NCBI RefSeq assembly: GCF_003704095.1
Contig: NW_020846553.1
Span: 372,001 to 436,000 of the forward strand
From: Pocillopora damicornis
Taxonomy: Eukaryota
Length of the DNA stretch: 64,000 nt
Direction: 5' to 3'
The translations under genes and the position numbers were made by a program. Every line of letters begins with the position of its first letter. Position 1 is the stretch's first letter. The notes beneath the pieces were generated by a model, which saw only the letters and a program-made list of their open reading frames with translations, made no database searches and was not told the origin of the DNA. Below are positions 1 to 51,694 of this stretch, piece after piece.

Positions 1-12
1 TTTCTTTCTCAG

Positions 13-16400: not shown

Positions 16401-19400
16401 ACCGCCTGAGAGAAATATTTGTCCTTTTACCATGTTTAGTATACATTATTTGCTTGTTTTGATTACACTGGTGTTCAGCTGTAAACTCATCAAGGTCTCT
16501 GGGTTGAAGATAACACCGCGGAATCAGAGCAAGGCGTCAAGAAATCAGTCACTGGAAAACCATTTTACGGCGTGGATACATAAAAACAGTGCCATAAGCT
16601 TAAATAATCGTCCGACCAAGCGACACTCTTTTGAGCGATTAAATGTGGACGATAACGTTGAATCCAATTATGAGACCTCATACGACAAACAAGATATGGA
16701 CGATTTTGATGTGAACAATGCAGGAGAGAAGCTACAGACAAGCTTCAGACAAGTGATTTTAGATCCAAATGAGGCGAATACTTTACGAGTTCCTCATCCA
16801 TATCCTTTCCAGCCAATTCATGTACGCCGTGACTGGCATCCCCAAATAGAACCGCTGGAGATATTCCCAAATCCCATTCAAGTTCATCATTACAGGAAAG
16901 TTCCAGTTGCAGTTCAGGTGCCGAGATATGAAATTGTTCCAAAACCTTTTTATGTTCCTTTAAGAGCATCGCCAGATTACAGTGTGCTGCACGTAGATGT
17001 TTATCACCCAGGTTGGTTTTGAGATTTTAAGGGCACCATATTTTAATAGTATTATCATTTAACAATATTCGAATCTCCCCATCACTCAAAAACCGATATA
17101 TTCGAGTGGCCAGCTTCCATCTCATCATCGATTGACCTAAAATTTTTAATGAGTTGCTGCGTAGTCAGCGAATTAAGTGTAACTACAGAAAGCAAATGGT
17201 TCATAGCTATATAGCTTCTTGATTTGTAAGTTTCGCAACTATGTCAGAGCCAATTATTTACCTATTTGCATACAGCTTCGCTTGGTTAGATGTTGGTGCC
17301 CAAGCTAACTTATTACTAATGGGAGAAAGACATCTCTCACAGAAGTTCCATTGACTATTTCATTACCACAGCTAATCCTTGCAGAAATGGCGGCCTTTTG
17401 CTATCCAGTCGCTTTGGCTATCATTGCTTGTGTTCAAAGGATTACAAAGGAAGGTTTTGCGATGGTATGTATACTACGCTTAAAGCTTTTTTAATTTATT
17501 GAAGAAAAAAATTTACGACATCAATTTAATTGATTTCTCAATCACAACGTTCCGTTAACATTGGTTTCTAGTTCATGAAAACTCATCAAAGTTATTTTTC
17601 ACGAAAATTTATTAAATATAATACTATTTTTTAAAATTTTTAAAATTTTTTTCCAGTTTATCTGTTTGATATTTTTGTTTGTTCATCGATAGCCAAGTTA
17701 TACTGCTCTTCGAGCCCATGTGAACATGGTGGAAAGTGCGAGGAAATAGAGAACAATTATCAATGTCAGTGTCCAACAGGATACATGGGTTACAACTGCG
17801 AAGGTAGATTATTAGCTTAGAGGCATTTTTACTTTTTTAAAGCAAAGACTTTGGAATGTCTATTTTCATATAAATCTGTGAAGAATAAAGATGTTATTGT
17901 TGGCATTAGTACCTGTTGTAAAGAAATCCCATATCGTTCAGCTACAGAGGTGTTGACAAACGATTGAGCTTAGGTTTCAAACACAACGAGACTCCCATTT
18001 CCATGTTGCTGTTGTTTTATTTTTTTTTCTTGAAATCGTTACCGCGTCCACGTATTATTCTCTATTTAATACTGCTGTATAACATATACATGCGTTGATT
18101 TACTCGGTTTTAGAGAAGAACTTTTGTAGACCAAACCCGTGTAAAAACGACGGACAGTGTGTGGAGACAATTAGCAATTACAAGTGTTACTGCAGATCTG
18201 GATTCACAGGGAAGCATTGCGAAGGTAATCTGTAAATCAACAATTTCATAGGAATGGAATGGGCTTGCATCTTTTAATAAACTTACGACAGAAACATCGA
18301 TGCTGCATTTACCTGACCTTCCTAGTACTCAAATATGTCAAACTTTTGCACTTTTACCACGTTGTGGGGAAGATTATGAAAATGTTACCCTGAAAGCTAA
18401 GATGACATTATTTAGTTGACGTTATGAATTTTAAAGCTATTACTGTTTTCTTACAGACTTAGATTACTGTGATCCAAACCCATGTCAACATGGCGGCACA
18501 TGTCAACAGAGACACGCCTCTCACGAATGCATCTGCAGAGAAGAATTCAAAGGAAAACTGTGCGAAAGTAAGGCGAGTTTACAGATCCCGTCTTATGACT
18601 GCCCAGTCATTTGAATCATTCAACACCAGTTTATTTATACTGACTGGGAGATAATCTTAGTTCAGTTTTGTTTATACATTGTTTTGAAATACTTTTGGCC
18701 CAATTGAAATACGTTGTGTGCGTTTTTTTCCTATTCAATCGGTTTGCCAATTTTTACATTTACACAGAGAAACGAGTGTGTCTTGCTAATCCGTGCAAAA
18801 ACGGCGGCGAATGCGTTGAGGATAACTCCAATTATCCCTGCATATGTCCGATGGGATATAGTCCGCCATATTGCAGAGGTGAGCACGTTTTCTAACGACC
18901 TGATATACAAAGTTATACCCCTTCACTTCTCTGCTTTCAAAATTTCCAAATACATAAAAATATTTAAACGTAGTTCTTGGAGTTTTTCCTAAGTCACGAT
19001 GTGCTCTGTGCTTAGTAAAAATTTCTTATTTCATCTTTATTACTTTTTCTTTTCAGTCCATGTTTGTGACTCCAACCCCTGCCTAAATGACGGTAAATGC
19101 GTTCCGGGGAAAGCAGGAGGGCACTGGAAATACCAGTGCATTTGCTCCCTCCTTTACAAAGGAGAAAATTGTGAAAGTAAGGAAACACTATAAAAAAAAA
19201 AATGAAATGACAATCTTACGAGGAATTCTTTTCAGAATTGTTACAGGCCTCGTGAACCATATCAGCCAAATTAATTCACATCTTTCTACTTTATTAGTTC
19301 CCAATCCTTGTGTAACAAATCCGTGTTTACATGGTGGAAGATGTATTGATACTTTTAGCAAGTACACAAACTTTCCAAAGGACTGGGACATAGGCTTTTT

Positions 19401-22167
19401 ACATTACTACTGCGCATGTCCACCGGATTATACAGGGCAGAAATGTGAAGGTACGTCATCCAGTTCTCACCGTCAACACATGACAAAGTTTAAAATCATA
19501 GAATGCTCATGAAATGCATCAAATGGAAAGGTTATTAATTCGAGATAGATGCAATACACGGAACTGATCCAAGCAATATCTTTTCCATCATAAAAAAAAA
19601 ACAGAAAATTTGTGTCTAAGGTGCGACGTAAATGCAACTTGCCAAAGTGGACAGTGCATCTGTAAGGATGGATTCAGAGGAGATGGCTTCAAATGCACTG
19701 GTGAGTAGTTTTTTTTATATATCCTGGTTAAACTTTATTTTTTCGTTCCTTTCGTCGTTTTGAAATATAATAAAAGCCCTATATATTTCGTGGCTGAGGA
19801 TAACTTTAATTGCTTTCATTTTTTGGTCTTAATTATTTCATTTTGTTCATATTCTGCTCTGGAAGCCATCAAGGATCCATGCGTTCCAAACCCATGTCGA
19901 AATAACGGGACATGTAGCAAGGGACCTGATGAAAGCTTCGACTGCACGTGTCCAGAGGGATTTTTTCCCCCTCTTTGCACAAGTAAGTGACATATCTTTC
20001 CAAATTCGTGGAAATAACAACGGCAGGCTTGAGATAAGTGTTATAAAAACTATCACAGGTCTCCTTTTTGGAAAATAGAAAGTCAAAACTTAAAATTGTT
20101 GTCCGAAGCCAAATCCTGAGAGTGAGTAACACTAGCTATTTTCTTTTCAATTAGTGAAGCTTGGTCGACGGCTCCATCTAAAAGCTTTAAATGCGCAGTG
20201 AATCCTACATGTAAAATAAATAAAAGTACCATCTATCCTAAAATCAAAAATCAGAGATTCTGTCCGAGAAAAGAAAGGATTTCACTGACATCTTGTATGG
20301 GTAGATTCTCGTTAGTCAGTCAAAGTTGTTGCGAAATATAGTGATTATGATTATATTATCATTATTATATTTATCATTACTTTTATCGTCATTGTCATTA
20401 TTATTACCATTATTGTGATTGATTTATCATTATTACTATTATAATCACTATATTCATTATTGTTTAGCTATTATTATTATTATTATCATCGTAAATAATA
20501 AGTTATCGTGGCAGTATTACCTTCAAACTCCATTCGTTCGTCCTCATCCATTTCTTCAAGCCACTCTGTCGAAAAAAAGGCAATAAATAGATAAATCACG
20601 CGTTGTAAGTCGATTTCACATAAAAATTAAATCAACGAAATCAAGGAAAGGTTCGAAGAATTAAATTACTCGATTCTAGGTTTTCTTCATAACCAACCAT
20701 TTTCATAATGGACTTTTTAAGGTTTAAGCTAGAAATATTTTACCATTGGTTTCCTCCAAAACTTTTTCCGTGTTTTCATCCTCGGATAGAGAGCCAATTT
20801 CGGATAGAGAGCCAATTTCTGATAGCAAATGTAGAAAAAAGGAAAAACGCGATCAGAGATGAAATAAGAAAGTACATACCGTAAAGTTAAAGAAAAACTT
20901 AAAGGGCAATGAAAGAGGGCGGGTGGGGAATTGGAAAGATATGAAGAGACGGATGAACCAGGAACAAAAGGATATAAGGAATCTCAACCTGTTTGATGGG
21001 AATGCAAATAAAGGCAAAAATGATTAGAGATGAATTTCTTTAAGTTCTTGTCACTAAATTGGGAAATTCTCAACTCGCAAAATGATGTCTATCATATGAG
21101 TATAGATACTTATGTTGATTATCATATTAATTATACATCATTTTGTCCTATTTTTTTAGTTAACCTAAAACTCCATTTTCACTTTTTCCAGATTTCATAG
21201 GAAGTGATGTTTGTCTCTAGCCGGTTTTCATTTCCTTTACAAACACAACCAAAGACTGAATCATCATGCCGAAAGTTAGAGCGAAACACTGTGTCACGCA
21301 AATTTGTCACAAAACACCAGGTCTATTATCTGAACCTGTAATGAGACTCTAATCAAGTACCCGTGAAAAGATTAATTACAATTGAGAGTTAATTTTCTTA
21401 AAAGAGTCAAATTTTCTGAGACTCGATTCCTTCCTGAGGGAAGATGGGGTCCTCCAGAATTTTTGCTTTCAGTAAATTGCATGCATTTGGCATAAAAGTT
21501 TAACGTTATGCCCCGGAGACTCGTCCTTTGTGTCAAATGTCAATATTTACGTCAGCGAGACGCTCTATGAATCAGCCACATACTTGAGAAGTCATTCGAA
21601 AATGAGTTATTTAATTTGTCATTTATTTTCGTCGTAGTTAGAATTCAAGAACGTAAATTAATTCTAGTTCGGCTAGATTAAACCGGACTTCTATCTTAAT
21701 TATTCATGAATTAGTCAGTTATATTGTCTCTTTTAGTTTCAATGTGTCGTTCAGTTTCAGGTTTTCCTCGAAACGGACACCTTTTCTTTCGCGTAAGGGC
21801 CTTTAAACTAACAAGAGTAAAGCCAGTCTCTCTGCTTAACATCACAGGATGGGATTTGGCATTATGTCGCAGTGATCTGTACTGGTCATGCAGTCATGGT
21901 TTATAAAACCTCTCTATGCGTAACAGAATTAATCTAATCCTGCTTTTAGCGACAGCCGCTCCATCGCAGTGTACTTTCATAACGCAAAGTTCAAACGTGA
22001 ATCAATGAATCTTCGAGACGTGACAAACAACGTTTCTGCCTAAAAAAAAAAGGTGCTGTCAACATACCTGAATATAAATCCTCGATTTCGTTGGCAATAT
22101 TTTTTGCTCTTGCGACGCTAACGGAGTGAAGGAGTATCAAAATAACTGCAAAACTCACGAGGTGCAT
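4409..22167 (-). CDS. Secreted astacin-family zinc metalloprotease: signal peptide - acidic prodomain - astacin - 2x TSP1 - MAM - 4x ShKT (astacin 2)
   Basis: 20 phase-consistent exons: 22068-22167 (MHLVSFAVILILLHSVSVARA), 20744-20818, 20521-20565, 15756-15818, 15062-15196, 14657-14833 (FDQGDMIL, RTKR), 14059-14173, 13154-13266 plus 12724-12795 (HELLHALGFFHEQARDDRD), 12059-12286 (SIMHY), 10824-10997 and 9708-9887 (TSP1, WxxWSxW), 9032-9166, 8133-8401, 7748-7829 (MAM: GPSRDHTTG, YYLYMESS, DIAIDDV), 7220-7327, 6671-6781, 6382-6420, 5777-5905, 4409-4518 (ShKT, TAG). Core 4409-15196 is very secure; linkage of the first four exons is inferred from phase and splice sites. Confidence 0.9.
11744..11837. 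repeat. Short imperfect inverted repeat (MITE-like remnant) in an astacin 2 intron
   Basis: gttttggtgtgtggtatcgctgag pairs with cttagcgattctgcacaccaaaac. Confidence 0.55.
12497..12793. repeat. ~149-bp tandem duplication containing a copy of the astacin 2 FFHEQARDDRD exon
   Basis: 12497-12644 and 12645-12793 align directly. The copy at 12575-12644 keeps the donor but has no adjacent AG acceptor. Confidence 0.9.
13299..13398 (-). mobile_element. Fragment of a Penelope-like/retrozyme-type repeat with a degenerate minimal hammerhead-ribozyme motif
   Basis: Minus strand reads gact-ctaatga-cttccgctcaggttggc-gaaa-cg-tc-aatc. Family assignment is from recalled similarity, not a search. Confidence 0.45.
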
Positions 22168-25100
22168 TTTAACGGACGATTCTAGCTGCAGCAACTAGCC
22201 AGCAGATCATTCAAATGTTTCCCAACTTCAAATTTCCAATTTAAAAGCGCTAGTCTCTCACCAGGATGCCTTGATTCGTTATCGATGCTAAATAAATAAG
22301 CAGCTCATTAGACCATGGCAATATATAACCGTTTTTTTCTCTCCTTTTGTTTATGTCGTATCTAATTTAAATGTGTTGATATGGCGGGCTGGAATTTTGC
22401 GCCACAGTCAGGAGATCGTTAACGGCCAGCACGCAACGGCGAAAAATCATCTTAGAAACAAAAATATGCTCAAATTCACTTTGTTTTTCATTGTTTATTC
22501 ACCAAGACTCATTTTATGAACACTTGAAAAGTATGTCAGATGTGAAAGTGTGTATAATTTGCAAAATCAACGAAGCGGATAAATATTTGTGCTCAGTGTG
22601 AAAGGAAGGCATCAACCGTGACCTGAGCGTCGGTTGGGGACTCTCGAGGTGCCGTTGCAAGTCTGGAGAAGCTTTTTCAACACCGAAGTCAGTGCGGTGA
22701 ATGGCTCAAGAAGAAGAAAACTTAGTGTGCTGTACCCGTCTCATGACATGAAGCTCCGGGACATGTACCTACCTTAATGTTAATGCCTCCAGGACAGAAT
22801 TTATTTGAAATACCCCTCCTTAATAAGTAACTAGTCCTTAAGTATTACTGGTATTCTCGCGACCTTTCAAGTCAACGAAGAAGAGGATTTGTTTTGAAAC
22901 ACCTATAGTGGCGAGCATAAAACCGTTCGCAATGCGGTATATCTAATTTCATGTGCAAATCAAACGGGCTCTTGATTAAACATCCTTAATTGACAGTTGA
23001 GCAAACATTTCACTAGATATTCTAGATAGTTTTAAATTTACCAGTATTATTATATTTTTTATTCAATTTTTAACTAAATAGTAAAAGGAATTGCTGATCC
23101 TATTCAATGCCCTCTCGTATAATCGTTTTTGGACCTGAGTACCGGCCTATTCCTATAATCAAGGGGAGTTATCCGCGTGTTTTTAATTGATCGCGAACTA
23201 GTTACTAATCATTCGGCTACGTAATAGAAATCGAAAGCTTTTCATCGAAAATGCCACCGTTCAGAGTTTTTCCCATGGTCATTCAGCTCTGGCTGAGAAA
23301 CGTAGCTGCGCAAAACATCTTTCCAATATTATACAGGCTTACCACGAAAATAAAGTAACTGTTAAATTACTTTACTTGCAGGCATTTTTACAGATGAGTC
23401 TTCATATTCGGCTTCAATGTAATTTAAAATTCATGTTTTTTTTAGTTGAAATAGGAGCTAAGTTGATTTGGAAGGGATTTTAAGAGATTACCTACAAAAC
23501 CTAGTAAAATGATACTTCGCAGAAATAAAACTTTTACTGATTTGATTAAAAAACCTGAAGTTACCAGGTGGCTAAGAACGATTTACGATGTACGTAACAA
23601 GTGTTTAAAAATAACTAAATTGGTTGATATGATTGAGGAAGGTCCCCTTCCCCCCACTTTAAAGCGGGAACATTTCTATGGAATAGAACAAGCTTTTTTC
23701 GAATAATTGAATATGCTAACTGTTATTAACCTACTTAATTTTTCTATTGATGTATTTCAAATATCAGTTTTGTTTTTGTTTCTACAGCGGTAGATGTTTG
23801 TATCCCTAATCCTTGTAAAAATCAAGGGATTTGCACAAAGGATGGCGTCGATCGATATCATTGCATCTGCCCGGCGGGCTTTTTACCTCCTAATTGTGTA
23901 AACAGTAAGTTATAACAAACTAAACTGTTTTTGAGAGAGTTCTTCTGCTTCTTGACTCCTCGTTGGTTATCTGGAGGAACCAAAAGTTTTCTCGTTGTGT
24001 CACGCTGTACTTTTAACCCTTTACACAATTACTACACACTTACATCAGTGTGCCTAGTCCATTCTGATCTCTATACACTTCATAGGATGCTGACAAAGAC
24101 AACTTATCTAACAATTAAGAGCATTTTTGGTCATTAATCGATCTCTTTTTTCTCTTGGCCTTTAAGTCTTATTCGGGAGTGATAGTGTGAGGAGAAATCA
24201 GATTGAGAGTTGAATCCGACCATAAGTTATCACCGTTACTTACTGAGCAGCTGGGAAATAACTGCTCTCTGCTATGCTTGCTTCTTAGAGACTGTTGATC
24301 CTTGCGTCCCTAATCCATGTCTAAACAGAGCAACTTGTCAGGCGTCACAAGATAAAAAGAGATTTACCTGCAACTGCAGAGGAAGTTTTAAGCCTCCTCT
24401 TTGTGGTAAGTAGAGTAAAATGGTAATGATAATGATGATAATAATCATAATTACGACGATAATTAACGAGTCAAATTAGGGCTCACATTAATTACATACT
24501 AATATACATTGAATCTATATATACAATGAAATGAATTTTCTTTATATATTATATAAATATATATATATATATATATAACGCGATATAGAAAATTCATCTC
24601 CTAAGGGCACAAACAATGCCATGAAGTCTGATTAAATTCTATAGACCTATCAAATTCTAGTAGCAACTGACTCTTTATCTCGATACGAGTAATAAGAACA
24701 GCCTAAACAAAGAGAATATGTTGATATTCTCTTGTTAAAACAGAATTGTTTTAACATCAAAACGGATTTTTATTAAGGAATCCGAAAGCATCTAAGTAAT
24801 TACACTAAAATAGTCATTCGTCTGAGGCTCAGTGGATATTGTTAAATAATCCCCGATGCTATATATATATACATATATTCACACCTCTAATATTCAATTT
24901 ATATACATATTTTTTTTGTTTGTTTTTTTGTTTTTATGTTTTTTTTTGTGTTTTTTTTTCGTGCAGTTATCATTTAAACTTAACAAACGAATAAAGGAGA
25001 ACTACTCCGTACAACTATGGAAACCTCATTCCACTAATTTTATTCCTCATCAACTGAACAGACACATATCTTAAAGAAATGGAGAACATCCTCGGTAATC

Positions 25101-28100
25101 ATGATTTATTATTCAGTGATTACTGATTTTATCAATAATTTTTTTTATTTTTGGCGCTTAGCATGTGACTGTCCAAAAGGAGATCCTTTGTGGGTTCCTC
25201 CCATTCTCGCTCAACAGTGCAAAGAAGATGGAGAGTGTTACTGCCCAAGTTACAACGGTAAAACGCACTCTAAGACAGAGAGAGGCTGCGTAGAGTCAAG
25301 TAAGCAAGACATTTTATCTAACCTACATTATAGTTTTCCAGATGTCTCCCCCTCTAGTAGTTATTTGAAGGATTCCTTATGTTAAAATCACACGCAAATT
25401 TTGCTCCTTAGATGTAAATAGGTCCACATCAGTTTCGATCCTACCAAGCTTAACTATGGCCAGAAGCACATACCTAATGCTCAACTTATGCTCAATGATC
25501 TTGCTTAGAGCCGTTTGCAGCCAATAAAAATCACGAGAAACCCTCATATTTATATACTCCAATTATCTATTATATATATATATTTTTTGAACAAAATCAT
25601 TGCTAATTTTATTTTGCCTTCGCCCACGAAGTTGCGAGGCCTCAGTCCTAATCTAAATTATTCAAAGTCTTCAGTTCTTTGTGCAAAATTAACTTATGGT
25701 ACGGGAGCAGAGAAAAGTAATGTTTTTTCCCTATAGTCTATCAACCGTTTTCGACGGTAAACGTCTTCTCCACGTTCTGTCTCGGGTTCTGCAAGTAAAA
25801 GATAATAAACACAATACAAGGAATTTGACTCACACGTATTATTTTTTTTACCTTGATATCATTTGTTCCGCGAAGCTCAAAAACCTTCTCTATTCTCGGA
25901 ACAGATTAAGTTCTCGGACAAATTTCCCAACATTACCATTGCTCGAGGCAATGTTTTATAACAAAACTAGTCGTTCATGTTGCTCAATCTCATAGGCCAC
26001 TTTTTTTAACTTATCCAGGACAGGATCCCTGCGATAGTAATCCGTGTCAAAATGGCGGTGTGTGTTCTGCTGACCCTGACAATTTGTCCTTCACTTGTCA
26101 ATGTCCTGAGCCATGCACGGGAGATCGCTGTCAAAATTGTAACAGTAAGTCTGTTTTTAGCCCATTAGTTAATGTTAGAATTTGTTTTTGGCTGTTCCTT
26201 TCAGTCGCCATTACGCGGTTTTCCATTCCGTCGATATTCAACTACTGTTATTTAATGTAAACAAACAAACAAACAAACAAAACACTCACAAACAAAAAAA
26301 CAAAACAAAACAAAACAAAGAAGAAGAAAGGCAACAGACTCAAGAATGCTCCCTAAATATTTAACTGCATTTTAGTCCGTGAATTACTAATCCTTTTGTG
26401 TTACTGTGTTTTCGGTTTGGTTTTGTTTTGGTACTATGTTTTCTTTTGTTTGTTTGTTTTTTCTGTTTCGATTGCTTGTTTGGTTTAAAGAATGATTCCT
26501 TCCTTTTATGTCAACAAGTTGACGAGATTTGTACTCCTGGATATTGCAAGAACAGTGGAACCTGTATAGTTGTGGGAACGAAGCCTTTCTGCAAGTGTCC
26601 TCCAAGTTACCTTCCCCCTCTATGCCTGATGCATGTTAACACAACAGGTAAAGGTTTTCTAGATCTTTTACAACTGGTTTGTTTCATTTTATTTGTCTAA
26701 TCATCTTTTTAAAAATGTTTCGCTCCAGAGTTTTCACGTCCTACTGCAGATTTTCTGTAAATCATCTACTCGCCTAATCTGCTGGATCTAGCAAGAGGAA
26801 AGCCAATGGGTCAAATACGGCTTTAAAAGGTTGCCCATTCGTTGCCCACCTTCTCCCCTCTTCCCCTCGCCTTAAACCTTAAATCGTTCAACAGAAAACC
26901 TCGTGTACTACTTATCTTTTCATTGTGAGACAGAAAAATAGATGTAACATAAGTCGTATGACTTAGTATATATTTGTTGCTTAATGTTTTACTGTTTTAT
27001 CAAACTGATCAGATAACCGAAGTCTTTGTCATCCCAACCCATGCCAAAATGGTGGAAAATGCAGGCAAGTGAGACCGAACAGCCTTGAATGTAGCTGCTC
27101 CAAGCAGTACCATGGAAGATACTGTGAGCGTAAGTAAGCAATAAATACTCTACGTTTATGAAGCCAAGAACACTTAAATTTACTGCACAAAGTTTATACT
27201 ACTTAAATTTGTGCAAAAAAAACAAAACAAAAATCTCTCGATCCATTTAATAAAAACATGTTCAATGAACCTAGGTGCATGTGAAGGCTGTTATAGAGAT
27301 AAGAGTTTTTACGAATTTTTGGATATGCAGTGCAATTGAAAAATTGACCAAAAATCTAGTTTTTTTTAAATCTTTAGTGAAGCTGAAAAGTTCAATAACA
27401 CTCGTGATTTAAATGGTATGGTAGAGGATGTTCTAAATGGTTTGATTTGGCTTTTTTATACCCCTCCCCTTACCCAACACCAACCTATTTTTTTGGGTTG
27501 GGGCAGGAGTAGGTTTGTAATTGCTCAGATACTGACATTGATGCTTTACTCTTTTCTTGCTTTAGGTGACAAGTGCATGGATTGTGATGTCCATGCCATA
27601 TGCTACAATGGCCGTTGTAAATGCAGACCGGGCTACAAAGGAAGTGGATTTCATGGAGATTGTAAACCAGGTAAAGTAATACCAAATTATTATTTTTAAA
27701 TGATCCTTTTTGATGTGAAACCCACACCATGAACATCTAGAGTATGAATGGAGTGTTCATCGCGTTCTAACAAATTGGTTACAAGAGAATTCTCTCTAAT
27801 GGGTACTTTGTTTACCTCCAACACAAAGCATTTCAGAAAATAATCTCTGGTGTTCAAGATTTCTAGAGTTTCACTGTAAAATAAGCTGTATTTTTAACCC
27901 TTAGTTATCAACCTGTAAGCGTGTTATTTACAATTAGCTCCCTGTCGTTAAAGACACAACACAATCAAAATGTGCACATATATATATATATCTCTAGATT
28001 CTTCCTACAAATGTTGCCTGAAGACTTTAATCAGTGCAATATCTACAAAAAATCCTACTGAGATTGAAGAACTAATGTGATAGAGTTTAACTCTGATCAT

Positions 28101-28382
28101 ATCAGAAATCATCTCAGAGCATTAATTTAACTTAAGAGCTGCCATAAGTGATGTCCGAGATACAATGAGCGAAAAAAATTTATAAGTAACTGTTAGTGGT
28201 CAAAATTAGCGTTAAGGTTCTTTATCCACTCATTAAAAAAAAGGCATTGTTGCATTTTAAGTTTATTTTATTGTTTTCAGTGTCTTTCTGTAACACCTGT
28301 CCGCTAAACGCCGTCTGTGTTGGCGGAGAATGCGCTTGTATCGCGGGATTTTACTTTATTGATAACACTTGTCAGAAAATAG
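16432..28382 (+). CDS. Secreted multi-EGF-repeat protein with His/Pro/Val-rich N-terminus (EGF-A); final exon and stop not resolved
   Basis: Exon 1 16432-17011 (MFSIHYLLVLITLVFSC signal peptide; ends SVLHVDVYHP). Then 17 phase-1 single-module exons at about 17372-17464, 17693-17803, 18114-18224, 18457-18567, 18768-18878, 19057-19176, 19298-19450, 19605-19700, 19866-19982, 23788-23904, 24290-24405, 25162-25299, 26019-26144, 26519-26647, 27013-27129, 27566-27670, 28281-28382, mostly CxPNPCxNGGxC...CxC...C. Confidence 0.9.
20341..20490. repeat. Degenerate (ATT/ATC)n low-complexity tract
   Basis: Run of attattatcattatt-type triplets. Confidence 0.85.
24540..24578. repeat. (AT)n microsatellite
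   Basis: tatatattatataaatatatatatatatatatata. Confidence 0.85.
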
Positions 28383-29493
28383 GTGAGTCGATGTATGTTT
28401 TTTGTAATTATCTAAATTGATTCAGTCATTTTGTTATATATCTCTCGTTCATTTGCTTATTTATTCATTTTTTCATTTTCCTGCTCTAGTTGGATACTAA
28501 TTCAGTTTGGTAACGTATGCATGACTGAAGCAGTTGCTGAGGACAAGGACTTCGAAAGCACGCACATTAGGTCGAATCAGATCCGAATAGTTATCCAGCC
28601 CAACCCTTTCCTAAAATCCTAATTCTTATTCTGATTCTCACGATTTGAAGGGTGTGACATCCTTCAAAATTTTAGGATTAATGAATCGACTTCTTCCAAT
28701 GTTAATTAGAGATACGTGTAATTTACGTTTTTGATGTTTCCAAAAACAGTTCCTTGCGTGCACTTCGCACTTAGCACACGGCTTTATTGTCTTTATAAAG
28801 CAACATAGCTATTTACAATAAACTAAACATAAAGCTATCACTACTCAAGGTTACGTTACAATTTATAATTTAATTAGATACTTGAAATCAAGTAAATATT
28901 AATTTTATGCCACATGCTGCATACAAAGAAAAAAAAAAGATGCCGCCATGGAAGCCAAACCTGGTCCAAGTTATCGGTAATGTGGCCCGTGTGTATGCCA
29001 TTAGATTAGCTACAAATGATTTTTTTTCTCTCTCTTTTTCTGTTTTTTCTTTGTTTGTTTGTTTCAATGGATTTGCTTATTTTTTGAAATAATATATTAC
29101 AGTTAAGTTTCGTCATCATAACTGCGTCATGTTAGTAATCTCTGAGGTTTCAAACATTCAATAGAATAATTTCCAAAACTGAATACGTTATGAAGCGTCT
29201 CTAACGCCCGCTATCTGCAATTGGAAAGAATGGGACAAAAAAATTGATTAGTATAAAAAGAAGTCAAGCCCCAGTCAGTTGAAAGGAACCAACTTCCTAT
29301 TGGTTCAGAGAAATGGGGTAATGAATTTCGTATGCCCATGTAAACGAAATGAAATAGTAATGATAGGATTATTTTGTCAAGAGCCAGAATATTTTGCCAA
29401 GTAGGAAAACTAAAGTTTTCCCGAAGAAAAAAACACGAGTGCATAAACTCGAGCCATTAAACGATAAAGAAAAAACACTGTATACGATGCAAC

Positions 29494-35400: not shown

Positions 35401-38400
35401 TCAATTTCTCAACTGCAATCACCACGAAATTTTCAGAAATATAACAAAAGGGGATTCTCTAACCAACAAGAATCTCATTATCAAAGGTTTCGAGTTGGCA
35501 ACGCTCTAGAACGGGTCGACATGATTATTACAAGTACCGCAGTGAATGAATTAACTTTCTGTGAACTTACTTTCGCACCTGGATCCCTTAAAACCAGGAG
35601 GACACTGGCAATGGAAGTGCAAGTGTGTCCAAGGGAGCGCTACGTCATAGACAGGTTGCTCCTCGTTTTCCTCTTTGGAAGTGAAGGCATCCACGCAAGT
35701 CCCACCGTTTAGGCAAGGTTGACGAATGCACGGATGAGGAACTTAAGATAGCAGGTGGTAAATAGAGCACTTCATTAAAATATTGTTAGACGAAAAACCT
35801 GAAAATGCTTTGATACGTAGTGATAACAGGCGGTGATAACAGGCGTTGAACAGAGCACTTCACTCAAATGTTGTTAAACGAATAACCTAAAATGCTTTAA
35901 TACAGAGTGCTATCTTTTTCTTATTATCTATACTTACTATGACAAATATGCCCTCGATACCATTCCGGACATGTGCAGCGATAATTCCATCTCTTGTTCC
36001 TGGACCCCGATGAATGGTCTACTACTTTGCAAGTGCCTTTGTGCAGGCATGGATTTGGTCGACACACGTGATCTTAGGAAGAAAGGATGTGTTTCAAATT
36101 AGCATGTTTTTTCCTTTGAGATATAAGGTATAGTATATGATTACTGTAACAGAAAAAATTCTTACCAATGCAGTATTTTCCTACGTATCCATTTGGACAA
36201 AGACAAGGGGCCAAAGGATTTTCTACGCATATCCCTCCATTATGACAAGGATTCATGAAGCAGATATATCTCTCTGAGAAACAAATAATACAAGATCGAT
36301 ACTGATGAATTTCTAAGGCAGGAAAGCAGCAGAGAACCAAGTGATAAAGTTGTTGACTGCAAGCCAAGGTAGACAAATCAAAAGTGCATAATTAAAACAC
36401 ATCGAAGTGTTTCACAGTGGGTAAAAATGGCATTTGACCGCTTTACGGCTTGCACAGATTGAACTGGACATGCACAGCGACCATACGCTTCTTTTAAATA
36501 TCTCTTAAGTCCACGCGGCCGTGAACTCCAATGCCGTCGATACAATAGGCATACAAACGCCTAAAATCCTTTGGAAATTTTATTAACCTCGTTTATATTA
36601 AACGAACTGACCGTTCTGGTTGATGAGATTGCTTCAAAGAATATCTAAAATAAACTAAAAACATGTTTCTTGAGCTGTCCATGTCTGGTAGTTTGCTTCA
36701 ATTTAGGTTTAATCTTTATCCCGTAATGAATAAGCTAAAAAACGCCATTTTGCAATATTTAGCTATCACTTAGCTACAGTTACGCGTTCATAGCGCTCAC
36801 TTACCATGACAGTAAGTTCCATGATATTGCGGTTGACACAGACAGCGTGGGGAACCATTTATGGTTTCACAGCTTGCGCCATGTTGGCAAGGGTTAGGCC
36901 AACAAGCATCAGTATCTATTCCGATAAAACATTGTCTAAATTTGAGAATTTATCATATTCATTCAGCTTTCATAGACTTAAAACTAAGCTTTTCTTCAAC
37001 GGTTTACTTTTCAAAAAGAAGCTTGCCTGAGAATGTTTGATTTCAGCCAAACATAATTTTGTTTGACTCATCCAGAGAAATTTATTGGCGTCCAGCTAAA
37101 ATGGTGTGCGACCTCGTTTGTATCTAATAGAATGCTTTGCACATTAAACGGAAGGAACCGATTGAAATCTTTATAATTGGAATATCTTGCACCCAATCCA
37201 TCATCAATGCGTGCTAACAAAATATGTGGTTACCAACGAATTCAAACATTCTTCTAGTTTGTCCAGACGTGTATCTTCAACTAAATTTCAAATGAAACCC
37301 CCACAAAAATCTACTGTGAATGGTCAAGGTTTTTCCTCTTACCTTTACAGCTATCCCCCTTGTAACCGTCTTGACACACGCATTTATAGCCTTGAAGAGT
37401 CTCAACGCATGTACCTCCATGTTCACAAGGGTTAGGGGAGCAAAAGGCTCTGTCTGAAACAATTGCCATATTGTGAGGAATCAACAAAAACCTCATTTGG
37501 GTTGAAAACAAAACGCAAGAATTTGTATATAACACATTAAACATTGCCATTATTCTCATTAATTAATTGATTCTTACCTTCACAGTCATTGCCTGTGAAA
37601 CCAGCAAGGCATGTGCATTTATAACCATTGCTAATCTCTAAGCACTTTCCTCCATTCTTGCATGGTTCAGAAAAACAGTGCTGTTGTACTTAAGAAAATG
37701 AATAAAATCAGAATCAAGACATTATTAAATAACAAAAAGTTACAGCTTGAAACAATGTTGGTCTAGGTCAGAGTGTTAATCAGCCATTAAACGCAATGTC
37801 AAGTAATATGGTCAATAATATTTTCTTAAGATTCACACCTACACGAGAACTCAAACAGTTATCACGGTACTTGAATTAAGTATTTGCCTGTTTGACTTAG
37901 TGTGTCTTTTGGTGAGTTAACGATACGAAAGTTACTGACTCTCTCCTTGACTGCACGAAAGTGTCAACGATTCACAGTTCTAATTTCACTACGCCAATGT
38001 CCAACTTGTTAGAATTGATTATCTCTAAACATGCCGTCCTTCTTTTTAGGGAAAACCTACTTTCACAAGTGGATCCAACGTACTGAGGTGGGCAAATACA
38101 GCGATAATTTCCTGATTCTTCTCCCGAAAGTACTCCGCCATTTTTGCAAGGATTTTCTGAAAAGATAACAAGCTATACATGATCGCGTTTAAAGAATTTT
38201 TGGAATGGTTAGGTGCATTTGAAACTTTGCAAGACAAAAAGGTTGAATAATCATCCACGAGATTTATTCTATGAACCAGTTGTTTAACAAAACAATGGGA
38301 TATTGAATGAAAGAGATTGCACTTACTCAATCAAAAAGCATACAAAATACATGTTTGAAATACGAGAGCCTGATTCAATCTCATCTGACTCTGAACCGGT

Positions 38401-39038
38401 TTTGTGCGAGATGTATGAAGACAGTACATCTTAAGTTTGCGCTTCGTTCAAAGTACAAACTAAGGGTCTCAACACAAATTTCAATCCTAAAGTAAGTGGT
38501 CCTATTGAGTCCTTTTGTTCTTCTTTAATTTTCCGTCTTTTATCTAAATATTGAATTGTTTTCATGTTCTACACAAAGAGGCGTCAGGCTTTCAATTATT
38601 TCTTTATCTATGAACATTAACCCAAAGTGTTTTGAAATTGGTTTCAAAAATCTAATATGAGAAAACAAACTCACTGTCATGAATATGCACATGTAAAATG
38701 TGTTCAGCAGTTTCCTTCTTGACTGGAACAGCAACCGGGTAATCTTTGATATGCTCGATGTGAATTGGTAACGGAGCTTCGGAGAAGTGTGGTCCTTCGT
38801 AACTAGAAATTAAAGGGTTGAGAAGATTCTTTCGTGTTCCTTTCACCGCTACACCTGTTTCCTTAGACTTCTTGGACAGGTTCGGAGACCTCGAGGATTT
38901 TAGTCTTCTTGGAGTACTGTTTCCAACTTTGTCTGTGCTATGCTTGCGAGATACTTTCTCAGCTGTAAATTTTCCGTAGCTTAAAGAGGGTAAACAAATG
39001 AGACAAAGCACAGCCAACTGTTGGGCCGAACAACGCAT
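29494..39038 (-). CDS. Secreted multi-EGF-repeat protein with His/Pro/Val-rich N-terminus (EGF-B); 3' end uncertain
   Basis: Exon 1 38675-39038 ([22 protein letters not shown]; ends HILHVHIHD). Then exons at about 38061-38156, 37577-37687, 37343-37453, 36805-36914, 36166-36273, 35936-36071, 35571-35741, 35011-35107, 34482-34597, 33693-33805, 33202-33324, 32300-32443, 31505-31615, 31142-31255, 30105-30230, 29783-29882, 29538-29624. Stop at 29494 if the last exon reads through, or near 28888 if it splices. Confidence 0.9.
30450..30708 (-). mobile_element. Degenerate tRNA-derived SINE-like fragment
   Basis: Minus strand of ~30645-30708 reads tgtggctgagtggcgagggc...ggtcccgggtttcagtcct, a decayed tRNA-like head with A/B-box resemblance. 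Extent of the body is approximate. Confidence 0.45.
31790..31960. repeat. Interspersed repeat fragment; related sequence at ~63400-63530
   Basis: gtgaatatccaccaattccatctacacttcggtgaat resembles the reverse complement of atttaccaaagtggaggtggctagtgagggatattta at ~63425-63460. Confidence 0.45.
32670..32980. mobile_element. Probable non-autonomous interspersed repeat (GC/CpG-richer intronic insert)
   Basis: Composition shift in an EGF-B intron, with internal palindromic motifs (gtccgtttttgaacggac; acggacctcgctgcgctcggtccgt). Family not determined. Confidence 0.4.
33848..33978. mobile_element. ~130-bp palindromic MITE
   Basis: Arms tatctgggcaactacccacctacccctccctaacccaaca and tgttgggttaggggaggggtagatgggcagtttcccagata are near-perfect reverse complements. 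Confidence 0.8.
35762..35905. repeat. Imperfect ~55-bp direct duplication flanking a 13-bp tandem repeat
   Basis: agagcacttcattaaaatattgttagacgaa...aaaatgctttgatac versus agagcacttcactcaaatgttgttaaacgaa...aaaatgctttaatac; gtgataacaggcg x2 between them. Confidence 0.75.
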
Positions 39039-39361: not shown

Positions 39362-39571
39362 TGGTAGAATAGATAGTTTAGACTTGTCTCCTTTCCTCTG
39401 CTCGACGGCATTTTGATATTCTTTAGAGAAAATATTGAAGAAAGATTCATTTAAATTCCTTCCAATTTGATGCACTCTCTCGAGGGGGGTAACATTTGTT
39501 GTTTCTTGGTAGAATAGATAGTTTAGACTTGTCTCCTTTCCTCTGCTCGACGGCATTTTGATATTCTTTAG
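39362..39571. repeat. Perfect 65-bp direct repeat upstream of EGF-B
   Basis: tggtagaatagatagtttagacttgtctcctttcctctgctcgacggcattttgatattctttag at 39362-39426 and 39507-39571. Confidence 0.9.
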
Positions 39572-40815
39572 CACGATAATTGTTTCATTTATATACTGAG
39601 AACGGTGAAATAAATTTTAAAGAATAATTTCAGAAGGTTATCTTGATAATCTCAAGTTGATTAAGTGGAAAGAGAAAGATACTTTTAATATACATAGGAG
39701 ACGCTGCCTTTCTAAATCATTTTTAACATGATCCTTTGTTTAAAAAAAATATTTTTTCGATTTTGCCATTTATTCTTTGAGTCTAATAGTTTTCTTAAAT
39801 CATAGCCTAAGGGCTAAAAGGCTTATACACTGGAGGAATATCATAGTCTATTCAAATTGGTAAGAAAACAGTTTTCGCAACAGAGGAATGAAAAAGAGTG
39901 ATGTTCATTAAGAAAAAAAGGCAATTGCATAATTACAACGTATGCACTGGTCTCTCTCTCGTGATCTGACCCGCTGATAAGCGACATTACACTGGTAAGC
40001 CTCTTTACTAATATATCGCCCGCATTTCAAAATGACGTTGCAGACCGGGTTTTGTTTGGTTATAACAGTTCTTGTTGAATGAGGACAGGTGGCGTGCTTT
40101 TGCTGTCGGGCTAGGCGTTATAACGCACCTTTTGGTTAAAATTACCCTGTTAGTGCTTTTATCAACCGCCCAATGACCATCCGTTTTGCATTTTTAGTGA
40201 GCACGGATTTGCTGCAGACTGACATTATTTCTTTTCTGTTCGTTTGGTTACCGTTACGTGTTTTAACAATACCACTAAGTTTCGAATTTACCGTAAGTTA
40301 CTAACATTCACACGCGGCCTCTATATTTGAAGTTAACATATATTTGAGGCCATGTATTTTTATTGAAATCCACGCCGACGATTAGACAGAAGAAAAGATT
40401 CAAAGCCGAATTACAGTATCAACAATCCCACGCAATATAATCTCAAAGATGTCAACAAATAGTTCTTTATTAAAGAAGACTTTATAATTTAGATGACACT
40501 CTTTGTTTGTTTGTTTCTTTTTTTCATTTACACTATTTACTAATTTCGAATTATATTTGACCAAGCTTTTTATCTATATTGTTGTGTGAATAATGAATTG
40601 TGCTATCAAAATAAATCTTTCGGTTAATTCCTTCTTATTTTCTATCACATCAGCTCGGAATTTACTTGATGCAATTTGTGTTGATTCTTCTTTCAGTCCT
40701 TTTTATCCTGAAAATCAATCACGTACAAAGGAAATAGTAAGAATATGAAATAGTAAAACGAAATTTTCAATCAAGAAAAATAGTTTCCTCGAATGCAACT
40801 ATTCTTTTCAACATG

Positions 40816-43800
40816 TTAATAACCATACAGAGCCCTGTAATATGGTCTGTAATTCGACCTGTAATATGGTCTGTAATTCGACCTGTAATATGGTGGGTAA
40901 CGATAGTTTACAGGATAGTCAGAATACTGAGGATAATCCATGGAAGGCGGCCCATAAGATGTCGGAGAGGGTGGAGCAGCAGCAGATGGACTGCTGATTG
41001 GAGGTGGTGGACCGGGTGCCGGTGGAAGAGCAGGTGCGACCGGCGGTGGAGCCGCGGAAGGCTGGGGAACAGGTGGTGGTGCAGATGGTACTGGTGGAGG
41101 AACGGGGGGAGGAGAGGATGGTTGTGGTGGTGGGACAGGGGGAGGTGGGGATGGCTGCGGGAGAGGAACGGGAGGAGGTGGCGATGGTTGCGGTGGAGGA
41201 ACAGGGGGAGGTGGGGATGGTTGCGGTGGAGGAACAGGGGGTGGTGGCGATGGTTGCGGTGGAGGAACAGGGGGAGGTGGGGATGGTTGCGGTGGTAGTG
41301 GAACTGGAGTTGTAGCAGGCGGCTGTGGGGATGGTACCGGAACTGGCGCTGAGGATGATTGTGTCGGGTTAATTGTACTAGGAATTGGAGGAGTAGGTTC
41401 GACTTCCTCTCCTTCTTCTTCCTCCTCCTCCTCCTCTTCCTCTTCATTTTCACCGTTGTGTATTGCGTAAACTGTCACACCTGTACGTCACAGTTAAAAA
41501 CAAAACAAAACAGAACAAACAAACAAAAAAAAAAAAAGAGAGTAGATGTTGTGGCTACGTTTTTCATCGTCAGTGATAACCTTTCATGTGTTGTTAGTGT
41601 TTCAACGTGTCAAGGAGCCCTGTTGTGATGTGTGTGTTATGTATACCTATTCATTTTATGTTTTTATGTCGCAGTCCGTGTAACCTTCCTCCAATCACCT
41701 CCACCACTGCTTAGTAAAAGGGATAGCTGAGTTGTTGAGGGTTAAATGAGTTTGAAAAAGAGCAGAGCAGCCCCGAACAAATATTGGTATCAGCCCCTCC
41801 TTTTCAACGGACATTAAGACGTAAAGCTAGCGGCCTTTGCAATATTCATATTATTAAATGTTAAGCATCTTAAACTTACAATTAGCAGATTGAGTCAGTC
41901 GTGCAGACTATTTAGTATTTCATTTTCCCATCAGTTTTACTTCGTTTGTATGGTGCATAGTACATTGCAGGGAGACCATACTGATGGGAAGACACTGGAG
42001 GGGCTGGAGGCGGCGGTAGTGGTGATGGCACTGGTTGTATTGGAGGAGGTGGTGGGTGTGGAGGCAACGGAGCTGAAAGAACCTTTGGAATTACTCGAAT
42101 TTGTGGAACTTAGTAAAATTTTCATTAAATCCAAAATGATACCGGTATGACGAATCTAGCAATCTAGTGAGCAAAGTAAAGATCTTTCTTGGGTAATTTC
42201 TAAGCTTTTTCACGTTCTAATTTCAAGCCATCACAAATAAAATCTATATCCCAAGCACTTTTTACTTTGGAGGTAGAAGAAATTAAGTAAATCCAAATTT
42301 TTACTTATTACTCTTTGATTAAGGAAGGTGAAAGTTCAGTCTGAAACCATATTTCTTACGTATGCAGGTGTTTCCTTGCATCTGATAGCCCGGTAGACAT
42401 TGACAAGCTCCTTGTAAACACGTTGAATAGACTGGACATATTGTCGGGCAGCGCTTGTGACGAGCTATAAAGCAAATTAAAATCAATGGTGTATTTTTAG
42501 CCTTCTATTCAATCTTAACTGCTTTATCAAATGAAGTCAACGACGTCACTTGCACCTTTCAGACGGTTATATAAACCGGGAAATATATTGGTAAAACTTC
42601 AACTCTTAGTCTGCAACGAGTTGAACCTAATCCCTATTTTCACCATAAAGTGTTCCTACACTGTACCATCTATACAGTATGCGGATTTAGTCTTGAGAAA
42701 CAGGTAAGTTAATTGCAAAAATGGAAGGAAAACGTACTGTAGACTGTTTTGATGGTTAAAATAACTTAAACTGGCGAGTAAATACTGGATCGTGCAGGTT
42801 GTTAGCATTGAATTAAAATTTGACTTTTATCTTGCCTTTTACACATTGATACCCTGTTCCTATGTAACCAGGCACACACTTGCAACGGCCTCTGACGCAC
42901 AAGGCGTGCACATCACACTTGGCACACTTATCAACTGTAAAATGAAGGAGCACAAACATTATAAAGTGCTCAATTTACTATTTTTGATTTTGAAGATGGC
43001 ATTTTGAGCTTAAAACTATCTTAACTGCTGACAGACACGAGATTCTCTCACAATGATACCAGAGATTGTTCTAAGTTTATGTGGCAAAGAGCCACTCTTA
43101 TATGAGTATATCAATTATTTCTGTATGTCATTCTTTGGCAAGTAAGCCCCGGAACTTCGTCCAGTTTCAAAAGGGTTAAACTGCCCCTCTTTTTAAATGT
43201 CCACAAATTAAAGTAAAATTAGCGTTTATTAAATTAACAACTGGAGAAGCTTAGCACCTTCAGAAGACAAAAAAAAGGAGACAAACAGTTTCGGTTTCGT
43301 ACCTTCACAATGGGCCCCTGTATATTGCTCATCGCAGTGACAGTCATATCCTCCGACAACCTGAACACAACTACCGCTGTTTAAGCAGGGATTAGGGTGA
43401 CAGTAGTCCTTGGGCTTGATAGCTGTTACAAAGTCGGTGAGACAAACGTGTGAGATGTACAAGAAAGAAAGCACTACTTTAAAGTCCATTTGATGGGTAA
43501 AAATATGACATCAGACCATAACACCTGTCGAGTTTTAAGAACGAGATTTTATTTAGCTGTTTGCTTCCCATAATACCTGTCAACAACCGGTTAGGTACTT
43601 CATGAAACACTCAATACTTGAGGCTATCATTGGGTCGGAGCCTTTGGGTGTCAAAAACATCTTTGAATACTTTGCATTGTCGTCAACCTGGGACGAGTTT
43701 TTTAATTCAAAAGGGAGAGTGTTTCTGAAACCCAAAGAATGCTTGTCATCACCAGTTTAAAGTATACAAAAAAATTGAACGTTTTTTAAGAGCCCACTCA

Positions 43801-49800: not shown

Positions 49801-51694
49801 TCGTTTATCAAGTGACTCATCAAAACTTAAAAGCCGATGACGAACTGAAACCAAGCTCTATCTCCAGCGCAATACTTTTAGTTATACTTGAAGTTTCCCT
49901 TAAGAGCCTCCAATATATTTTTATATCGAGGTGTGATGTTAAGGTTGTGTTAAGAAACTGCCTTTCACATTACGATGGTAAAGAGTAAGATCGACTATTT
50001 CAACAAAGTTTAGCCATTATTTAAGAACACCGCGCTTGACCATCTTCAAACTTTTAGCCACGTTTTTTTTAAAAATGTTACTTTGTCTTAATATAGCGAA
50101 GAATTCCTATGGCTAACAGTGAAAATAACTTCATGCACTGAAAAAAAAAACCCGTGGAGATATTTTGAGGTTTCAATGGTTATCTAGATGTTCGGCTTAA
50201 GTGATACTTCATTTCAGTATCAAGTTGAAGTGTTTTCATACCTTCACATACCACCCCGAGAAATCCATGAGGACAACTGCACTTAAATGCGCCAGAAATC
50301 TCAGTACATGTAGCTCCATTCTTACAAGGGCTTGAAGCGCAGTAATTTCTATCTAGAAGGAGACGGTTGGGAGAAAAACAGGAAAAAAAAGAGAGAAGAT
50401 TTTTAGTTTCTCAAACTGGTGATACTGTATAAGGAAAAACAAATATTTACCTTAAACAGACGTAAAACATTTTACCTTCACAGTTCTTGCCCCGAAATTC
50501 TTTTTGACAAATACAGAAGTATTCATGGGGTAGCTTTACGAAAATCCCTCCATTTTGGCACGGATTTAGGTGGTCTGCAGAAATAAGAAAATTACAATAT
50601 TAATTTTAAGAATTACATCGAAGGAATTTCTGTTTCCGTCCGGCGTAGTAAGTTTGTTTTCCGCTTAATTTGCTGCTAAATGGAACATGGCAGACAGTAA
50701 AGGATTGCTTTTACTAAAATTATTCCACTTAGTTGCGATGTATTCACGTTCGTTATAACTAACTGAAATAATTGCATTTTAACTTCTTGTTCTCTATTCA
50801 CTCTTGAACTACCGCTGTGCTTTTCAACCAAAACTATAACAAAATGCGGGATTTGTTTCAGTAAATGATCTAGAAAGTCATCATTAAAACTTACACCTTG
50901 GGCTGTACGCCTAATTGAATGTGAAAACATTAAATTTAATAGTTGAAACACCTTGAAACTGGTTGTAAGTTCAACAGTAAAGCAAAATGCGAAAAATAAA
51001 TCACTCATCATTCGAGATATTATTTGAGCTCGAAGTCATCAAACACATTATTCAGTATTTATGGTACAAATTTGAAATTTCATCTTCAAGGAGGGATATC
51101 TACGGCCTGGACTTAATCATCTCTACTTAAAAGATGACACCGAAACAGACGAATTTCGCGTGTAGAGGAACCTTCTCCGAACGAGCGAGTTTACCACCTG
51201 TTTACACCCAGTGAGAACTTTCACCTTCACCTCTTTTTCTTTACACAATGTTAAATAATCATTTTATACTTACATTTGGGGCGAAGATGAAGATGGGAGA
51301 CGTGGACATGAGGCGCTACTGGGTATGGTACAGGATATGGCCTTGGGACGTACTGAACGGACACAACAGGGTACGGCTTTGGTACCAGGTGAATGTGATG
51401 ATTTGCGAATGGCGGCGGTATTACATTCAAAGGGTGTGGGAAAAAATATCTTCGACTTCCACTCTCGTCTTTTACTGCCTTCGTTGATGTGGAATTTGCA
51501 ATAATACTGTCCTCTTTAGCAGTAAAGCTGTCGTTATTTGCCCCTCCAACGTTGACTTTGTGGACTTTGCTTTCAACTTCATGGGCTTTGGTCTCCTTGA
51601 GGGTTACACTCTGCCGTTTACCAACAACAAGAAGGCTTGGATTGCAACAAAGGCAGAATAGTTGGTATACAGCTAGAAGTTTAAAGTAAAACAT
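40816..51694 (-). CDS. Secreted multi-EGF-repeat protein with His/Pro/Val-rich N-terminus and poly-Glu/Pro-repeat/Tyr-rich C-terminal tail (EGF-C)
   Basis: Exon 1 ~51274-51694 ([17 protein letters not shown]; ends [12 protein letters not shown]). Module exons at about 50477-50574, 50242-50352, 49627-49743, 49141-49254, 48597-48707, 48003-48110, 47506-47658, 46958-47054, 46424-46540, 46168-46284, 45317-45427, 44972-45097, 44753-44874, 44066-44179, 43303-43422, 42836-42934, 42360-42464. Pro-rich exons 41941-42108 and 40816-41480 (TAA). Confidence 0.9.
40834..40893 (-). repeat. Coding 24-bp tandem repeat (YRSNYRPY) in the EGF-C tail
   Basis: cctgtaatatggtctgtaattcga repeated about 2.5 times. 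Confidence 0.9.
41095..41300 (-). repeat. Coding 33-bp tandem repeat ([11 protein letters not shown]) in the EGF-C tail
   Basis: About six copies of ggaggaacagggggaggtggggatggttgcggt. Confidence 0.9.

Follow-up and report, generated by a model that had tools for sequence, protein, structure and literature searches.

Among the described systems, the closest to the locus studied here are the 'fibropellin-like' (Fp-like) and poly-EGF genes of Nematostella, which bear consecutive numbers and many of which are cnidarian-specific (PMC12549020, in part). In supplement 5 of the same study, 24 of 27 'Fp-like' marker rows refer to cnidocyte states and the remaining three to gland cells, and NvFp-like-8 is detected in 78% of nem.1 cells as compared to 1.3% elsewhere (PMC12549020, in part). 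Other anemone poly-EGF genes are markers of mucous or digestive gland cells, of sperm and of gastrodermis, and fibrous or adhesive roles have been proposed for the Nematostella proteins by the authors (PMC12549020, in part). How cnidocyst tubules and spines assemble from soluble precursors is poorly known in corals and anemones, and the literature covered here, as far as available, proposes no assembly mechanism for cnidocyte poly-EGF proteins.

Spinalin, a Gly/His-rich protein of Hydra nematocyst spines, had no identified anthozoan counterpart in 2016 (PMC5363355, in part); a later preprint names a 'spinalin-like' Nematostella gene. Proparts ending in Lys-Arg are common among cnidocyst proteins, where they are short and acidic, and they are not specific to cnidocysts (PMC3447340, in part). 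Articulins, finally, are defined by more than three VPV modules within a domain of acid-base dyads (PMC6212826, in part).

The coral genes described here resemble NvFp-like-2, NvFp-like-4 to -8, NvPolyEGF-5 and NvPolyEGF-18 as cnidarian poly-EGF genes in apparent tandem clusters (PMC12549020, in part), a likeness that is drawn from descriptions rather than from compared sequences and in which the Nematostella clustering is read from consecutive gene identifiers. In addition, they encode an N-terminal module composed of a His/Pro/Val-rich segment and an EGF repeat with only four cysteines, neither of which is mentioned in the available part of the Nematostella descriptions (PMC12549020). The module is real and apparently as yet undescribed, on an otherwise known kind of cnidarian poly-EGF protein.

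A tandem cluster of poly-EGF genes

The window, that is the whole stretch of 64,000 nucleotides analysed here, was scanned for phase-1 Cys-rich exons, which were subsequently joined by script into gene models. This revealed three colinear poly-EGF genes, A, B and C. The original prediction had likewise counted three complete paralogs, and these could indeed be modelled, but the cluster comprises at least six such genes rather than three. Six EGF-repeat genes are arranged in tandem in about 80 kb, with exon 1 of gene D as well as genes F and G located beyond the window:

16432-28500, plus strand: gene A, about 854 aa
39038 to at least 29538, minus strand: gene B, at least 780 aa, last exon not fixed in the model
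51694-40816, minus strand: gene C, 1008 aa
54680..64000, minus strand: EGF exons of gene D; exon 1 outside the window at L003:1941-2239
L003:4468 to L004:9492: gene F, EGF-repeat gene with a KR site in exon 1
L005:1825-9230: gene G, EGF-repeat gene with a KR site in exon 1

Genes A, B and C each encode a hydrophobic N-terminus in a long exon 1, followed by 17 Cys-rich exons, the order of which hardly differs between the three; they comprise EGFs, an insertion EGF, short EGFs and a six-Cys module with the motif CxCPK. Hydropathy, by which alone the signal peptides were assigned, indicates no transmembrane helix past the N-terminus in the three models, and A, B and C are predicted to be secreted tandem-EGF proteins without a membrane anchor. 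Exon 1 of gene A is present in RNA contigs from four out of four runs (four studies) and spliced at position 17011. RNA contigs also contain six GT-AG joints of gene A up to position 19160; the exons of A past this position and all exons of B and C are predicted only. The 3' end of gene A matches P0009, for which the ESM Atlas returned generic EGF clusters. The following parts can be distinguished downstream of the N-terminal module:

17693..28500, plus strand: remainder of gene A, 16 exons with six to eight Cys (EGF, insertion EGF, short EGF and CxCPK module), then a short final exon
19298-19450, 35571-35741, 47506-47658 and 62683-62862: insertion EGF, with an aromatic insertion of 12-21 residues between Cys3 and Cys4
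25162-25299 (plus strand, A), 32300-32443 (minus strand, B) and 44972-45097 (minus strand, C): CxCPK six-Cys module, one per gene, unnamed
40816..41480, minus strand: last exon of gene C, splice predicted

The inserted stretch of the insertion EGF closes with a strand containing His in A, B and C, and similar EGFs are present in gene F. A profile search for the CxCPK module yielded, among 19 of 29 representatives, 15 short frames with the module and four unrelated repeat proteins; none of these 19 was a full-length CxCPK protein, and no copy was found elsewhere in the coral's own genome (a search whose sensitivity is a lower bound). The tail of gene C consists of poly-Glu, seven 11-residue Pro-rich repeats with poly-Pro and, finally, Tyr/Arg/Asn repeats.

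Tandem EGF repeats are shared with the sea urchin fibropellins, with Notch and its ligands and with the EGF-repeat foot proteins of mussels. Fibropellins also possess CUB and avidin-like domains, Notch ligands a DSL domain and a transmembrane helix, and calcium-binding EGFs are typical of these proteins. A true fibropellin or Notch ligand was rejected for the coral genes, since none of the exon models shows a CUB, avidin-like or DSL domain or a transmembrane helix; the start motif of calcium-binding EGFs occurs zero times in A, B and C.

The His/Pro/Val block of exon 1 and its basic sites

The original prediction placed conserved His/Pro/Val peptides at the end of exon 1 in A (plus strand) and in B and C (both minus strand), and this is where they were located; for A, the codon frame of the segment runs from 16789 and not from 16790. 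Exon 1 of gene A is laid out as predicted signal peptide, basic pro-region, acidic spacer and conserved His/Pro/Val block:

16432..17011, plus strand: exon 1 of gene A (ORF, model, RNA contigs, hydropathy); predicted signal about aa 1-24
16612..16623, plus strand: PTKR (aa 61-64), conserved dibasic, candidate convertase site of A
16624..16740, plus strand: acidic spacer (aa 65-103), weakly conserved, 38% identity in nine clusters
16741..17011, plus strand: conserved His/Pro/Val/Tyr block (aa 104-193), starting at the invariant R106|Q107 and containing 16790-17011
16747-16752, plus strand: R106-Q107, kept in 9/9 ortholog clusters
16825..16830, plus strand: RR 132-133, the originally predicted site in A
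38675..39038, minus strand: exon 1 of gene B; RK at 38834-38829, His/Pro/Val segment at 38828-38675
51274..51694, minus strand: exon 1 of gene C; KR|Q at 51619-51611 (residues 26-28), RR at 51454-51449, His/Pro/Val segment at 51448-51274

A profile search for the motif, proposed along with the original prediction and performed here with the four first exons of A, B, C and D, recovered 21 proteins among 2710 candidates. These are A's own cluster, nine more A-type clusters with 45-65% identity, which are not independent, several looking closely related, and three B-type, three C-type and five D-type proteins. Across the nine A-type clusters, identity to A is 23% in the signal peptide, 50% in residues 25-60, 100% in PTKR (61-64), 40% in residues 131-146 around RR and 69% in residues 147-193. 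Residues 104-130 are 68% identical and resemble in this respect residues 147-193, at variance with the earlier view that the region preceding the RR site is not conserved. As predicted, the conserved module does follow a basic site; however, the site assigned to A is not the conserved one: RR 132-133 is missing in 9/9 ortholog clusters and present in all 15 of the listed near-identical sequences. This RR is lineage-specific and unlikely to represent the conserved processing site. PTKR is invariant in 9/9 ortholog clusters and in 9/9 ortholog loci, with the residue after KR being Gln in 8/9 orthologs and His in the A sequence studied here. Since the conserved basic sites (PTKR, R106|Q107) lie upstream, the block extends about 50 bases further 5' than originally predicted.

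KR|Q is also present in C, D and G; in gene D it stands at the end of exon 1 and precedes a 25-residue segment with 20% His. We infer that R106|Q107 of A corresponds to the starts that follow the basic site in each of B, C, D and G, where a basic residue is followed by a polar residue, two hydrophobic ones and then Pro. Sequence P0036 lacks 15 residues, which cover most of the RR site of C. Proprotein convertases prefer KR and RR, and an N-terminal Gln cyclises. We regard cleavage at the basic site as quite likely; this and all further statements of probability are judgements and not computed values. Like minicollagens and cnidarian toxins, the coral proteins combine a signal, a propart and a dibasic site, and the poly-Pro of gene C is also reminiscent of minicollagens, whereas a Gly-X-Y domain is lacking. 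A propart of the cnidocyst type, i.e. 9-17 polar or acidic residues ending in Lys-Arg, was rejected: KR, RK or RR is present, but the pro-regions are long (40-60 mostly basic residues), with zero to two acidic residues among the last 15 (four before R106).

Paralogs B, C and D were compared with one distant ortholog each, giving identities after versus before the basic site of 42/51 versus 33/48 for B, 50/58 versus 35/58 for C and 22/25 versus 25/52 for D. The His patterns of all three are kept in these single orthologs; the two cysteines of D are not. At the DNA level, nine ortholog loci of A were obtained from 66 pattern matches in metagenome contigs. The divergent astacin exon upstream of A also occurs in L015 and L022, the two loci with more than 3 kb of upstream sequence, which supports orthology of the loci. 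For block 104-193, dN/dS (Nei-Gojobori) is 0.12-0.23 in comparisons of A with five of the nine loci, four near-duplicates having been dropped and synonymous sites being near saturation. The acidic spacer gives overlapping values of 0.13-0.49, and the pro-region was not computable. These ratios indicate that the block is under purifying selection.

His accounts for 9.5%, 13.7% and 13.1% of the segments of A, B and C, respectively, an excess over the assumed background of 2.4% with binomial p values of 2e-3, 2e-4 and 1e-4, for segments that were picked after looking and contain 8-14% His. The EGF part of A contains 2.7% His, and the four paralogs A-D reach 8-20%. Val and Ile together make up 20-22% of the segments and Pro 18-25% in A and C, with prolines breaking strands every three to six residues. 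The segments also share residue order beyond composition (A-C, p = 0.0005; A-B, 0.007; B-C, 0.011; local alignment scores against 2000 shuffles, with boundaries chosen by us), and the D segment shares no order with A, B or C (p at least 0.49, 2000 shuffles). Outside the cluster, the own genome yielded no additional copies of the segments of A or C, the sensitivity of this search being a lower bound.

IHIHIQI-type peptides form Zn amyloid through strict alternation of His and aliphatic residues over the strand. On this model, the original prediction proposed that cleavage exposes strands with alternating H-x-H-x-H, common to all three paralogs, which assemble into Zn/Cu- or pH-triggered beta-fibrils. 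The alternation is not a common feature: B contains it once, A and C do not (H-x-H itself is found 0, 2 and 3 times in A, B and C), and membership in the IHIHIQI class was rejected on this ground. Conservation of the His pattern among A orthologs holds in part. Of the seven His of A, H153 and H187 are fixed everywhere, as is H130 when judged from ungapped sequences, whereas H192 is His in 3/9 orthologs and H122 and H136 in 1/9. H152 is invariant in the nine orthologs but varies in near-identical sequences (four H, six N and five D among 15 listed of 246) and is D or N in two of four RNA runs. At most Pro, Val and Tyr positions there is no or hardly any variation, and these residues are at least as invariant as His. 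The His content of four paralogs, the invariant H153 and H187 and the His patterns kept in B, C and D speak for alternating-His fibrils; the absence of H-x-H from A, its non-conserved RR, the variable His positions and the strand-breaking prolines render this reading improbable.

The codon for residue 152 of A (16885-16887) displays a His/Asn/Asp polymorphism, which may mark lineages within the coral group.

Richness in His is shared with spinalin, a secreted structural protein of the cnidocyst. Identity with spinalin was nevertheless rejected, as Gly amounts to 0-4% in the coral segments and these are attached to 17 or more Cys-rich modules. In their Val/Ile/Pro-rich and Gly-poor strands the segments resemble articulins and epiplastins, to which the original prediction had compared them because of VPV motifs. 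This comparison failed: VPV occurs 1, 1, 0 and 0 times in A, B, C and D, i.e. zero to one per segment as opposed to more than three in articulins (PMC6212826, in part), and acid-base dyads 1, 2, 0 and 0 times, i.e. zero to two per segment; moreover, the coral proteins are predicted to be secreted, whereas articulins are membrane-skeletal.

A four-cysteine EGF and a candidate assembly unit

A feature that was absent from the original prediction is encoded by exon 2, where the EGF adjoining the segment lacks exactly Cys1 and Cys3:

17372..17464, plus strand: exon 2 of gene A, EGF with four Cys, splice joints from RNA
38061..38156, minus strand: exon 2 of gene B, EGF without Cys1 and Cys3, splice predicted
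50476..50574, minus strand: exon 2 of gene C, EGF without Cys1 and Cys3, splice predicted

All 48 remaining Cys-rich exons of A, B and C contain six to eight cysteines. EGF domains are normally bonded 1-3, 2-4 and 5-6, Cys1 and Cys3 being partners, and in exon 2 the position of Cys3 is taken by a stretch of residues that are small or hydrophobic. The two cysteines are lost in 9/9 ortholog loci, as recognised by pattern in seven and by reading in L016 and in L015, which is truncated, and in the spliced loci L019 and L020 the last His/Val strand runs directly into the four-Cys EGF. Notch EGFs are the best solved relatives of this EGF, and for the N-terminal 400 aa of one spliced ortholog Pfam recognises EGF families only. 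Genes D, F and G have no long Pro/Val segment and their first EGF carries six cysteines, as far as D can be judged across a gap of the assembly in its first intron; hence segment and stripped EGF are not needed by all members of the family. Their co-occurrence suggests one structural unit, and we consider it probable that segment and four-Cys EGF act as one.

Searches for fold and family returned little. AlphaFold2 gave no confident fold for A104-193, either alone (mean pLDDT 45.6) or with 12 sequences (43.6). Pfam gave no credible match to the exon-1 peptides of the four genes or to the CxCPK module, a PDB sequence search with the block one chance-level match, and the ESM Atlas weakly similar (0.76) arthropod clusters within the range of shuffled proteins. 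No homolog of the block was found among proteins of 339-2000 aa, and the 10 homolog clusters bear no informative name; none of the homolog searches recovered a named or full-length homolog. Among the open full texts that the searches listed, none was found to describe the module; PMC13307990 does not mention EGF, apparent EGF mentions in two papers turned out to be eGFP, and the available parts of PMC12945647 and PMC8590396 hold nothing decisive on it.

The missing fold and the weak language-model look-alikes would suit a low-complexity linker without specific function. However, the block is more conserved than its flanks, is apparently under purifying selection, shares residue order between paralogs and is coupled to the loss of two cysteines. 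In our view the linker is very improbable, being largely refuted by ortholog conservation and dN/dS.

An alternative is that segment and four-Cys EGF form a monomeric domain that binds a partner or sorts the protein to a secretory organelle, without self-assembly. Position-specific conservation in 29/74 columns, including charged and aromatic ones, resembles that of a defined fold or interface, and the segments of A, B and C differ in length as well as in net charge (+1, -4 and +6, respectively). Then again, neither a Pfam family nor a solved structure matches, and the Pro content of A and C, together with the lack of a confident model, is easier to reconcile with an extended chain than with a globule. 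We rate such a domain unlikely, though worth keeping in mind; even if the module were only a partner-binding cap, it would still be an undescribed domain and a marker for the gene family.

The explanation that we tentatively prefer, while placing it somewhat short of probable, is that segment and four-Cys EGF constitute an assembly unit on secreted poly-EGF rods, which is uncovered by cleavage and probably belongs to the cnidocyst. A proprotein convertase would cut after KR63-64 and/or R106 in A, after RK in B, RR in C and KR in D, leaving N-terminal ends of the type basic|polar-hydrophobic-hydrophobic-..-Pro. Loss of the Cys1-Cys3 bond would free the edge of the EGF hairpin, with a hydrophobic strand replacing Cys3, and this freed edge could pair with the last His/Val strand, either its own chain's or that of a chain next to it. 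Pro/Val/Tyr strands would add further beta contacts, and the EGF rods may thereby be linked into a fibre, probably in the cnidocyst. In the weakest step, the few fixed His would tune assembly by pH or Zn/Cu, with no alternating-His fibril being formed. Whether the unit links protein chains at all appears evenly balanced, and a role of His as pH or metal switch seems rather doubtful.

For the cnidocyst as location, the comparison with Nematostella tips the balance slightly in favour. The same unit might instead reside on mucus, adhesive, mesoglea or skeletal-matrix proteins. NvPolyEGF-6 and -7, two neighbouring cnidarian-specific genes, are markers of mucous gland cells, and NvFp-like-5 and -6 were detected in mesoglea extracts as well; on the other hand, most clustered Fp-like genes mark cnidocytes (PMC12549020, in part). 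As for the skeleton, the main text of the proteome study PMC9532382 (in part) does not mention EGF, and 12 of the 13 EGF passages of PMC4890752 all concern other architectures, with no poly-EGF protein among them. The same unit at a site outside cnidocysts is a minor contender.

A more specific form of the assembly unit is a strand-exchange polymer, in which the His/Val strand, freed by removal of the propeptide, completes the stripped EGF of the next chain under control of pH or Zn, in the tubule or spines of the capsule. We consider this form improbable. If true, co-expressed paralogs would knit EGF rods together in the stinging capsules of corals, and the polymer would fill the functional place of spinalin in anthozoans and represent a novel mode of EGF polymerisation. 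The block together with the four-Cys EGF comprises about 120 residues, is expressible and has defined candidate cleavage sites, which makes the question of assembly testable, and the unit could provide a switchable fibre-forming module.

Further observations at the locus

For the exons at 57183-54680 a separate gene, E, is the less likely reading: no first exon was found, and they more probably continue D, but a trial junction joining them to D is out of frame. A Gly/Ser/Pro-rich exon of D (59083-59195, minus strand) may be spliced in internally or provide an alternative end to the gene. Gene G encodes a Met/Pro/His-rich segment after RKR|Q and, in a later exon, a YGCCPDG motif as in papilin-like proteins; Pfam gave no match for this motif, and a Kunitz domain, which would hint at NvFp-like-2, was not found in gene G.

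The cluster is flanked by a gene at 4800-15305 (minus strand), divergent from A, which its motifs suggest to be of the astacin-MAM-thrombospondin type; a second astacin-like gene lies at about 1-2300 (plus strand). Although astacin flanks the coral cluster, the available tables list no astacin beside NV2.5916-5918, 6437-6444 or 6021-6022, and synteny with Nematostella via the astacin gene is not supported. Downstream of the cluster, L007:6270-7592 (minus strand) holds a leucine-rich-repeat-like ORF with a long Glu-rich tail. A direct duplication of about 60 bases, noticed by eye, is located 5' of exon 1 of gene B (39420-39576).
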